Positions 20,701 through 23,700 of a DNA stretch of 64,000 bases are shown here, in pieces. The DNA lies in assembly GCF_024223415.1 (NCBI RefSeq), contig NZ_CP100500.1, one strand, 5' to 3'. This DNA comes from Escherichia coli. Its GTDB lineage: Bacteria; Pseudomonadota; Gammaproteobacteria; Enterobacterales; Enterobacteriaceae. The stretch's first letter is position 1; every line of letters starts with the position of its first letter. Position numbers: made by a program.

Positions 20701-23700
20701 CAGCTTTATTTAACCACGCTATGGCCTTACCATAATCTCTTATCACGCCACTCCCTTTACTATATAATACTCCTAAGTTTCCCTGCGCTTCTGGAAAACC
20801 TTTTTCAGCTGCCATTTGATAACATTCAAATGCTTTTTCATAATTTTGAGACACCCCATAACCATGAGCATACATAACACCGAGGTTATACTGAGCCTCT
20901 GTCAGCCCCTGTTTTGCTGCAAGCGAGTACCAATATACTGCATCTTTATAACTCTGGATTCCTTCAGAACCACTTCGATATAACTCCGCGAGTTTAAATT
21001 GCGCAGTAGCATCTCCCTTATCAGCATCTTTTCTTATATATGTCATTTTATTGGAGGCTGCTGTGTCTTCTGTCACCCCAATTGCAACAGGAATACTCAA
21101 CACTTCAAAAAAAAAACATCACAACAACACACATTAATATTTTTCGATTATTTTTTATCGGCATCTTTTTTATCATCACCTTTAAATTTATCTACCGCTT
21201 CACTAGAAGTCATGTCAGTAATATAATCTCCAAATGCATTTTCAGGCACAAAGGGCAATTTACCCAAAGTTGCACCTAATAATTCCTCCGCTCCTGTATC
21301 AGCAGCAGCATAAACACCAGATTTAAAATCCCCTCCCTTACTTAAAAATGACAATCCCATTTTCAAAGCTATTTTCTCAACAAACGTTTTTCCCGCTCCC
21401 CAAGAACCACCTAAAGCACATAGCGCCAACTCGGATTTATCCGGCATCTTATGATCAGACATATAGTCAGTCGTAGCAACCGCACCACATGAACTAAGAC
21501 TTCCAATTGCTATCTCCCCCCATGTAAGAGTCCCCCCTTCTAATGCAGCCGCACTTGCTACTGGCTCGGTAAATACTACTCCGGCAATAACAGGAGGCAG
21601 TAAAGCCCATCCTTTTACATAATCGTCTAATGGATTATACACTCCACGCATACTTGAAAAATCATCCAACGCTTTAAATTTTTCTTCATCTGACAGGTTC
21701 GGGGCGAATCCAACATTAGCCCCCTGCATAGTGTTATAATAATTAGTTCCAAATATCATTTGCGGCGTTACATTAGCTAACCCCAACGGATCTATATGTT
21801 CAATAGGATTGAGTGGGTACTGGTAAGGATTTAATCCTCCTTCCAGCCCAATCGGGTCCTGGGTGATATACCGTCCCTGCAACGGGTCATAGTACCGGTG
21901 ACGGTTGTAATACAGCCCCGACTCCTCATCATACTGCTGTCCCGGCAGACGGTACGGCTGTTGCAGGTGCTGCGCGCTGGTTTCGCCCAGCAGGTTTCCC
22001 CACTCGTCATACTCCCCCTGCCACGCCGTTTCCCCTTCCGGGCTGATGAGCGCCTGCGGCAGTCCCCGGTGGTCGCAGTGGTAAAGATGAAGTTTCCGCT
22101 CCGGGATGTATTCCGCCTCCAGCTGCGCGGCCATCTGCTCCGCCGTCAGCCCGCACTGCGCAAGCCATGCCTCACTCTCCGCACTCACCGCTCCCGCGCG
22201 CAGTTCCCGCTCCAGCCTCCCCAGCATCACCGACAGCTCCGCCGGTAGCGTCACACCCGTGTCCTCTTGCAACACCTCCGCCAGGCTCCGGTGCCGCGCC
22301 TTCGCCTGTTCGCCATTCTCTGTTTCGATTCTCAGGAGCGGCGTGAAGCTCCCCGGCTGGTATACCGTCTGGATACGCGTGGTGCCGGTCTGTATCGTCG
22401 TCAGCCTGTCGCCGTCCCACCCGTACCATGTCACCTCCGGTTTACGCGACAACGACATCCACCCCGTCAGGTCACGCTCCCGCCGCCATACCCGTTTTCC
22501 CGTCCGGCGGCCCAGCGGGTCATAGAGGTAACGGCTCTCCACCTGTGGTTCGCCGTGCTGTATCCGCGTGTAGAACACCAGGCGGTGCTGGCTGTCGTAG
22601 TGGTAGTGGTGGGTCCGCTCGTCGTGCATCCGGATAACCCCTTCCGGGATGCGGTCCGTCTTCTCCGCCAGCCTGCCGTATTCATCGTGGCGGTAGACAT
22701 AGTGCGCATCTTCCGCGATGCGGTTATCCGGCCACGCCGTGAGCGTGCTGTCCGGGTGCAGTTCCGGGTCCGGCAGCCGGTTTCCCGCCGGGTCTGTTGC
22801 ATACGGGATATCGATATCCAGGTTCGCCGCCGTGGTGTGGACGCCCGTCAGCCTTCCCGTGTCACTGTAACGGTACTCCCGGCTCTCCTGCGGGCCGCTG
22901 ATGCGGATTAGCTGTCCGTTGTCGTTCCAGTCGTAGTCACGGTCAAGCTGCGGGAGGTTCAGGTGCCTGCTCCGGAGCTGGCCGCTGGTATTCCAGGCGG
23001 TGGCAAGTTCATATGCCTCCCCGCCGAAGCTGCGGGCCGTCTCACGGTGCAGCCGGTCCCGCGTGTACTCGACCAGTGGCGTTCCGCCCAGCTTCATCCC
23101 CGCAAGATAACCGCTGCCATACGTCAGCCACTCTACCGGCGGCAGACCGTCCGGCTCCTGACGGGTCGCCAGTCCCTGTTCGCTGTACGCGTGCCCCGTC
23201 TCATGCTCCCACAGCATCTCCCCCGTCTCCGGGTTCTCCACCGTCTGCCGTTCGCCCGTCAGGCGGCCTTTATCGTCATAGCCGTAGTGGACCGCCACAC
23301 GGTGGCCTTCACTGGTATGGCTGATGGTGGTTAACCACCCGTGCTCATCATACTGCCACTGCTCCGCCGGGTCGCCGTTCACCGTCCGGTGCGTGATGCG
23401 GTCCGACGCATCGTAATGCCAGAGGGTGATAAGTCCCTCATCTTCACTCTGCGTGAGTTTTCCGGTCAGGTCATAGTGGTAACGTTGCGTCCGCCCGTCA
23501 AAACCGCGCTGTTCAGTCAGCCTGTCCACCGGGTCATACCGGAACGTGGACTGGCTGCCGTTCTCGTTGGTCAGCACGGTGATGCGCCCGGCAGCGTCAT
23601 ACCCCATGCTGCGCGTAAGACCGCCTTCCGTCACACTCACCGGACGCCCGCGTTTATCATATTCGATGGTGCTGCATTTACCGTCCGGTGATATCGTTGC

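Follow-up and report, generated by a model that had tools for sequence, protein, structure and literature searches.

A type VI secretion Rhs effector of Escherichia coli with a tail related to the CDI ionophore toxins and a Sel1-repeat neighbour as candidate immunity protein

Ionophore toxins that act in contact-dependent growth inhibition (CDI) have as their prototype the C-terminal tail of CdiA from strain EC93 (CT-EC93), and this tail, together with 88 other Escherichia coli CdiA tails, constitutes a family that depolarizes target cells (Halvorsen et al., 2024; PMC11630599). Its members display an N-terminal entry domain and a predicted five-helix ionophore bundle with a glycine zipper in helix 4, and this GxxxGxxxG zipper is the one element that every published CDI ionophore shares (PMC11630599). 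The cognate immunity proteins, CdiI, are two-helix proteins of 72-100 aa, and the inner-membrane receptors of the toxins are AcrB, SecY, YciB, PuuP/PlaP and DtpA/B (PMC11630599). Rhs proteins are brought up in that work only for the unrelated toxin Tse5 (PMC11630599). The present analysis concerns the C-terminal tail of an Rhs effector linked to a type VI secretion system (T6SS), encoded in a stretch of 64,000 nt of E. coli DNA (RefSeq assembly GCF_024223415.1, contig NZ_CP100500.1), here called the window. On profile evidence the tail is a divergent relative of the CDI ionophores, and the gene that follows it encodes a Sel1-repeat protein. No paper linking Rhs tails with the EC93 family came up in a literature search. 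The ‘pore-forming’ STox families of a 2026 Salmonella survey could not be mapped to the tails described here, and their accessions differ from those of the clusters listed in the searches.

The Rhs gene is complete, with 1462 codons and a stop (21148..25536; positions are those of the window, and the features of the Rhs element and vgrG given below are all on the minus strand). An earlier note on this DNA, made from the sequence alone, had placed the 1462-aa Rhs protein directly downstream of vgrG, and this is borne out by the open reading frame (ORF), by the NCBIfam RHS_core match and by a VgrG/TssI gene that lies 75 nt upstream of it. RHS_core matches residues 1-1253 as an equivalog with 2554 bits (cut-off 2000), the core has eight YD repeats, and Rhs_assc_core covers residues 1176-1253 (NCBIfam). 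The core ends in DPIGL...DPLGL, as the same note had read it, and its estimate of about 209 residues beyond this point proves to be exactly 209. The DPLGL codons (residues 1249-1253; 21778..21792) mark the expected point of autoproteolytic release: both the RHS_core and the Rhs_assc_core models stop at residue 1253, and the base composition switches at these codons. The Rhs core has a GC content of 0.636, compared with 0.411 for the tail and 0.382 for the next gene. With 11.5% Gly, 12% Ala and 7% Ser, the tail is also rich in Gly and Ala, as had been described. Autoproteolysis at the core end is established Rhs biology, and by analogy the toxin tail would be released by cleavage after DPLGL.

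Searches of family libraries with the tail gave little. Pfam returned nothing, even at E<=10, and no match was found in NCBIfam or PADLOC. A word-indexed protein search with the single tail yielded five fragments only, four of them from orphan Rhs cassettes of E. coli or Salmonella; clusters are defined by the cores of full-length Rhs proteins, and these proteins are hidden within them. An alignment-based search brought up 25 proteins. Each is an Rhs tail or an orphan, and those with a named source come from Salmonella, Yokenella, Enterobacter and Pseudocitrobacter. The database names of all listed relatives are ‘hypothetical’ or ‘RHS’ only.

The relationship to CdiA emerges with profiles. A search of 1.84 billion representative proteins with a profile built from 13 Rhs tails only (A2) produced 69 hits, many of which are the C-termini of long proteins. 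When 20 of the longer hits were scanned, PT-VENN was present in 12-14 and haemagglutinin repeats in 6-7, and these long proteins are therefore taken to be CdiA effectors. One of the hits, P0063, is a near copy of CT-EC93. CdiA-EC93 itself (3132 aa) and its 79-aa CdiI were read from plasmid pCP127, and CT-EC93 matches the Rhs-only profile with 42.6 bits (E=5.6e-6 at Z=1.84e9); the match spans positions 3-182 of the profile, which is nearly its full length. When the window tail alone is compared pairwise with CT-EC93, significance is not reached, and the link is transitive through Salmonella Rhs tails. For this reason two profiles were compared, one of the window subgroup and its sister group B (A6) and one of 16 CdiA-derived tails (A7). 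The hhalign comparison gives a probability of 99.7%, with E=8.8e-27 and 186 aligned columns that span both halves of the tail. The N-terminal part of the tail aligns with the entry domain of CdiA-CT EC93, and the alignment takes in all five helices together with two residues of a loop discussed below, the invariant Gly and the basic one. The tail is thus, as judged by profile homology, a divergent relative of the CDI ionophore toxins. The earlier note had found the tail not assignable to a known toxin family; this does not hold, since there is a confident profile match to a characterized family, an outcome that the note itself had named as refuting. The ionophore family is absent from Pfam, NCBIfam and the PDB. 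Its suggestion of a membrane-targeting or pore-forming tail, on the other hand, gains support from homology to CdiA-CT ionophores that have been characterized as membrane-depolarizing.

The Rhs-borne relatives fall into subgroups. Subgroup A consists of the window tail and that of Salmonella Texas. Members of subgroup B (e.g. P0004 and P0008) are 27-47% identical to the window tail, and subgroup C is represented by P0013. The P0005 tail combines an N-terminal block of the group A/B type (...Y.KGW), 75% identical to that of the window tail, with a C-terminal part of the group C type; the N-terminal block of the window tail is common to Salmonella Rhs tails. When the A6 profile was used to scan 100,044 species-representative genomes, no locus was confirmed. 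An orphan Rhs tail of a different make-up was observed at positions 5713-6360 of a Salmonella locus (L002). It has an N-terminal ‘entry-like’ block (YNPPGEYVLGVATVPAIVG...) and a short polar C-terminus, lacks the five-helix region, and is followed 27 nt on by a Sel1 gene. This tail could be a relative that has been truncated, or else another toxin with only the N-terminal part in common. A distant blastn search with this short tail and its Sel1 gene returned generic SEL1-like genes only.

AlphaFold2 (AF2) modelling with an alignment of 54 sequences predicts an all-helical tail with no strands (mean pLDDT 64, pTM 0.45), and pLDDT rises to 75-80 over tail residues 90-150. Residues 1-80 (21538..21777) form a predicted helical, entry-domain-like part with helices at 5-9, 11-23, 30-41, 49-69 and 72-77. 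Residues 86-206 (21160..21522), which correspond by hhalign to the ionophore domain, form five predicted amphipathic helices at 86-108, 114-127, 132-146, 151-171 and 182-206. With moderate confidence the modelled architecture matches the published bipartite plan of an entry domain followed by five helices; the packing of the bundle is a prediction only. A Foldseek search of AFDB50 with the tail model ranks Rhs tails first, and ranks 3-26 are all VENN, ‘adhesin’ or haemagglutinin tails, Edwardsiella ictaluri 93-146 among them. The latter is listed in group 4 of the CDI ionophores (PMC11630599). Polytopic transporters appear below rank 26.

Experimentally determined structures offer no such neighbours. 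Foldseek found nothing below E=1 for the tail model in the PDB, and the profile of the 54-sequence family, searched against all PDB chain sequences, gave a best E of 0.58 to unrelated proteins. As the PDB gives neither a fold nor a profile match, no link to colicins, Tse5 or P-loop proteins can be drawn. A pore-forming domain of the Tse5/colicin type was considered and rejected on these two results, with no relationship detected.

The tail contains a Walker-A-like string, as the earlier note pointed out: GGSWGAGKT, at tail residues 123-131 (21385..21411), is an exact fit to GxxxxGK[ST]. This raises the question of whether the tail could be an enzyme of the P-loop NTPase or kinase type, with the string as its Walker-A motif. 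The only matches of the tail to PDB sequences are to adenylate and cytidylate kinases and are centred on this very string, at E values of about 0.5-0.9, all of them non-significant (E>=0.48). In the family alignment, however, GGSWGAGKT coincides with a loop of the form G-x-L-T-x-G-[K/R]-G between bundle helices 2 and 3. In the 54 sequences no residue other than Gly129 is invariant; the position of the Walker-A Lys, 130, is K, R, Q or Y, and that of the Thr, 131, is G, S, N or T. A P-loop normally follows a beta strand, and the AF2 model has none; nor was any P-loop family found in Pfam, even at the permissive threshold, or in NCBIfam. With Lys and Thr not conserved, an all-helical model and no profile hit, the P-loop reading is rejected and can be given hardly any credence. 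The caution that the P-loop resemblance might be coincidental was therefore well placed. The string is more than pure chance, in that by alignment it is a family motif which happens to fit Walker-A in this member.

The nature of the gene downstream of the tail went unremarked in the earlier note. In the window it is present as a Sel1-repeat ORF of 316 aa (20153..21103) with six Sel1 repeats (Pfam), low in GC like the tail and devoid of a signal sequence, which is cut off by a homopolymer frameshift. The true start (ATG 21162-21164) and the signal or anchor are carried by a separate 24-codon remnant (21105..21179), which appears in the ORF list and overlaps the Rhs stop. In an allele with a shorter homopolymer (T9; WP_001695458.1), the protein is 336 aa long and its gene starts 17 nt inside the Rhs gene, overlapping the Rhs stop. 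The N-terminus of this protein, MPIKNNRK followed by about 22 hydrophobic residues (KD19 2.54), is by its sequence a signal peptide or a signal anchor. Between the Rhs stop and an insertion sequence (IS) remnant in the window there is no small ORF of at least 20 aa that could encode an immunity protein with two transmembrane (2-TM) segments, nor any other candidate immunity ORF.

The tail and the Sel1 gene also occur together in Salmonella Texas, at 78% and 76% identity, where the tail copy is frameshifted. It is on account of this linkage that the Sel1 protein is taken as the candidate for a cognate, periplasm-facing immunity protein. In groups B and C, the tail is directly followed, usually with a 4-nt overlap, by a gene for a protein of 80-82 aa with two hydrophobic segments, like CdiI-EC93. 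Signal-bearing Sel1 genes related to that of the window (35-39% identity) were also observed in Rhs arrays of Salmonella and other enterobacteria, downstream of a CdiI-like 2-TM gene or of short orphan tails. The sites are L015 746-994 and 1138-2187 (a 2-TM gene, then Sel1), L002 4960-5205 and 6387-7361 (the latter being the Sel1 gene after the short tail) and L014 5456-6451 (Sel1 further downstream). Some ionophore-type cassettes may thus be equipped with protective genes of two kinds, or the Sel1 genes may have stayed on as orphan immunity genes.

The frameshift in the window is caused by a T10 homopolymer (21107..21116; A10 on the plus strand), identified by DNA alignment with three E. coli genomes, which splits the Sel1 gene into the 24-codon remnant and the 316-aa ORF. 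The tail-Sel1 pair was found in 32 of 5426 complete E. coli genomes (about 0.6%). In 26 of the 32 the junction is one base shorter, and in four (NCTC10444, KV7, SCU-316 and DSM 103246) it has the length found in the window. Two of the strains with the shorter junction, O78 strain 3 and Z1322HEC0005, were read, and both have T9 and an intact 336-aa Sel1 gene translationally coupled to the Rhs gene. Three explanations can be offered for the T10: a genuine frameshift, a tract subject to phase variation, or an error in the assembly. Over the 2.1 kb surrounding the tail the window is 100% identical to NCTC10444 and KV7. It should be pointed out that tssG, an intact ORF of 362 codons in the window (33695-34783), is marked as frameshifted in NCTC10444 (NZ_LR134092 4166431-4167490), which is otherwise identical over the region compared, and that a VasL-domain gene is also marked as frameshifted there. 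These two cases suggest indel noise in the NCTC10444 assembly, and this bears on how far the T10 call is to be trusted.

Such findings could be taken to mean that the toxin/immunity pair of this strain is a decaying or silent relic. The T10 has cost the Sel1 gene its start and signal in the window and three other genomes, the pair is rare among E. coli, the Salmonella Texas tail is frameshifted, and an IS remnant abuts the module. Against this, the Rhs ORF is unbroken over its 1462 codons, with at least 99% identity among the 32 genomes; most of these have the shorter junction, with an intact Sel1 gene in both that were read; vgrG, hcp and the tssG ORF are intact in the window; and the one-base difference may itself be an assembly error. 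A relic is therefore considered quite improbable.

The interpretation preferred here is that the tail is a divergent, T6SS-borne member of the CDI ionophore family, i.e. a membrane-depolarizing toxin, with the Sel1 protein as its periplasmic immunity protein; judged from sequence comparisons, this is probable, if by no means secure. The Rhs protein would be mounted on the VgrG spike, which the adjacent gene encodes, and injected into a Gram-negative cell nearby, and the Rhs cage would cleave itself after DPLGL to set the tail free. The helical N-terminal part of about 80 residues may act as a CDI-like ‘entry’ domain that docks on an inner-membrane protein; the PEGQDP(A/V)RGLL motif, which is associated with AcrB in group 1, to which EC93 belongs, is absent from it. 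The five amphipathic C-terminal helices would then insert into the cytoplasmic membrane, whose potential they would dissipate. The producer would be protected by the co-transcribed Sel1-repeat protein in place of the usual 2-TM hairpin. This protein, exported or anchored via its N-terminal signal, would probably sequester the toxin in the periplasm before insertion.

Several observations weigh against this interpretation. In addition to the transitive nature of the link to CT-EC93, AF2 confidence is moderate and the Foldseek TM-scores are low (0.2-0.5). No 19-residue stretch of the tail has transmembrane-like hydropathy. The zipper segment is partly kept and partly degraded (G154-x3-A158-x3-G162, then G168-x3-G172), and the helix carries D160, E164 and E165. 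In helix 1, Asp takes the place of a near-invariant Gln, and compared with the sister group 12 residues are inserted between this helix and helix 2. When the tail and the mature Sel1 protein were modelled with AF2 through a 30-residue linker, no confident complex or interface was obtained; the solenoid had a pLDDT above 90 and the confidence of the tail was lowered, and as no paired alignment was available the model is uninformative. Lastly, the immunity partner differs in kind from that of every characterized family member, and the mode of action could therefore be changed as well.

The last point leads to an alternative in which the fold is the same and the job is another: the tail would form no conducting channel, and would block an inner-membrane or periplasmic target or permeabilize the membrane grossly. 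This would explain why a soluble or periplasmic Sel1 binder replaces the intramembrane CdiI hairpin. The degraded zipper, the insertion after helix 1 and the more charged helices 4 and 5 all fit such a change, as does the switch in immunity type, and the short Salmonella tail, with its N-terminal part and polar C-terminus, likewise has a Sel1 gene downstream. Yet the CdiA alignment covers each of the five helices and, in the loop, both the invariant Gly and the basic residue, and the overall hydropathy of the tail (GRAVY -0.08) equals that of CT-EC93 (-0.09). Moreover, soluble immunity to a depolarizing glycine-zipper toxin has a precedent: EsxX is neutralized by the soluble binder ExiAB, which sequesters the zipper, and also by the membrane proteins ExiCD (PMC12744356). 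A changed job is accordingly regarded as unlikely, and the ionophore interpretation is retained.

If that interpretation is correct, two further proposals can be made, both tentative and held with more doubt than confidence. One is that exported Sel1-repeat proteins represent a new class of immunity against ionophores or pore-formers, which would capture the toxin in the periplasm before insertion, unlike the CdiI hairpins, which are predicted to plug it within the bilayer. The other is that a CDI ionophore with its entry domain works from a T6SS Rhs cage, in which case receptor-assisted membrane insertion would not be peculiar to CDI. With this system it can be tested whether ionophores that arrive through a T6SS likewise depend on a receptor in the inner membrane. 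The family connection also has a practical side. The CDI ionophore family has no Pfam or NCBIfam entry, and its Rhs-borne relatives, widespread as Salmonella orphan cassettes, are annotated as ‘RHS core’ or ‘hypothetical’; through the connection, a function that can be tested is proposed for hundreds of such T6SS cassettes. The presumed switch of immunity within one toxin family, in which an exported Sel1 solenoid takes the place of a 2-TM hairpin, is a natural experiment on how membrane-inserting toxins are neutralized.

The remainder of the Rhs element and its surroundings can be described briefly. The vgrG/tssI gene (25612..27753) encodes a T6SS spike protein of 713 aa (NCBIfam TIGR03361 VI_Rhs_Vgr, E=1.3e-188), in agreement with the RefSeq annotation of the identical locus. 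By NCBIfam and RefSeq, vgrG, hcp and tssBCEFG adjoin the Rhs gene, which links it to a T6SS cluster; in the window this cluster is located beside yafV-ivy-fadE. A PAAR-like N-terminus had been reported for the Rhs protein. The motif can be read literally in the translation of residues 1-45 (GKPAARQGD...CSVCPGG; 25402..25536), together with a CxxC, but Pfam finds no PAAR-motif domain in the N-terminal 500 aa; it gives DUF6531 at residues 47-123, right after this stretch, and RHS repeats instead. The term ‘PAAR-like’ is therefore used for the visible motif only, and to that extent the description stands. At the other end, the element is closed next to yafV by the remnant of a truncated ISAs1 (H-repeat) transposase gene (19322..19849), which matches profile positions 1-96 of 314 of NCBIfam transpos_ISAs1 and is a pseudogene in RefSeq. 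An ISAs1 H-repeat remnant is a usual boundary of Rhs elements. The C-terminal third of the remnant ORF (19322-19849) consists of out-of-family sequence. About 8 kb from the Rhs element, at 12341-12882, there is a dinJ-yafQ type II toxin-antitoxin pair, which is ordinary core-genome content.

In E. coli O157 Sakai the same locus has a different, unrelated tail and immunity gene, and the cassette is thus variable. The Sakai genes ECs_0237/ECs_0238 (O157:H7; L013 22079-26907) encode a vgrG-linked Rhs protein with an alpha/beta-looking tail, followed by a YibG-like protein of the tetratricopeptide repeat (TPR)/Sel1 type with a (GE)n repeat. The possibility that the O157 EDL933/Sakai Rhs protein (z0268/ECs_0237) and its TPR-like neighbour are the same pair as that of the window was considered and rejected, the tail being unrelated and, by eye, alpha/beta. 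A further observation concerns the record of EC93 plasmid pCP127 (NZ_CP061330; L011/L012, about 46-68 kb), which bears both cdi loci. It also has a block that is normally chromosomal, ISAs1 fragment-yafV-ivy-fadE-lpcA-...-dinB-pepD-gpt-frsA-crl-phoE-proBA-tRNA-Thr, and this is the neighbourhood that flanks the Rhs element of the window. The block could be captured chromosomal DNA or an assembly artefact.

Several known systems can be compared. The EsxX-ExiAB/ExiCD system of the Staphylococcus aureus type VII secretion system offers a precedent for immunity that is not membrane-based, and the 2-TM gene and Sel1 gene that follow one another after a tail in L015 form a parallel to its two kinds of protective protein (PMC12744356). 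The proteins are unrelated, from a Gram-positive organism and another secretion system, and the comparison is an analogy only. Among Sel1-repeat proteins, Sel1E of Klebsiella is a T6SS immunity protein against VgrG4. PA5087 and PA5088 are Sel1-repeat immunity proteins to T6SS phospholipase D effectors, and resemble the window protein in being exported Sel1-repeat solenoids encoded next to a T6SS effector that they are expected to bind (PMC7216683). The known Sel1 immunity proteins differ from the window protein in that they neutralize enzymes or VgrG-borne domains. No Sel1-repeat immunity protein is known to neutralize an ionophore or pore-former.

Tse5 (RhsP1) of Pseudomonas aeruginosa has a published structure, present in the PDB, and its immunity protein is a small membrane protein. 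In outline, Tse5, as summarized in the CDI ionophore work, is similar to the window effector: a PAAR-type Rhs cage delivers a Gly-rich depolarizing tail via the T6SS (PMC11630599). The two differ in sequence, with no relationship detectable by the 54-sequence profile, which finds nothing in the PDB chains. The Rhs and orphan tails of Salmonella and other Enterobacteriaceae in groups B and C (P0004, P0008 and P0013) are much closer. They share the DPxGL context of Rhs proteins and belong to the same family by profile; they differ in their CdiI-like membrane hairpins of 80-82 aa, in an N...Q motif in helix 1 and in a richer Gly zipper.

The CdiA-CT ionophores are similar to the window tail by homology over the whole tail, an all-helical entry part followed by five helices, the G-x-x-G-[K/R] loop, comparable hydropathy, polymorphism and a cognate protective gene (in the window, a candidate one) next to the toxin (PMC11630599). 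The window tail differs in that it is carried after DPLGL on an Rhs/T6SS effector and not after VENN on CdiA, a type V secretion system (T5SS) protein; its zipper is partly kept and it has no group-1 PEGQDP(A/V)RGLL motif. Its partner is a signal-bearing Sel1 protein of about 336 aa (in the T9 allele) and not a two-helix CdiI of 72-100 aa. Sharing of toxin domains between CdiA and Rhs proteins is a well-known principle, and the finding is therefore a variation on a known theme: a known toxin family on a different carrier and with a different class of immunity partner.

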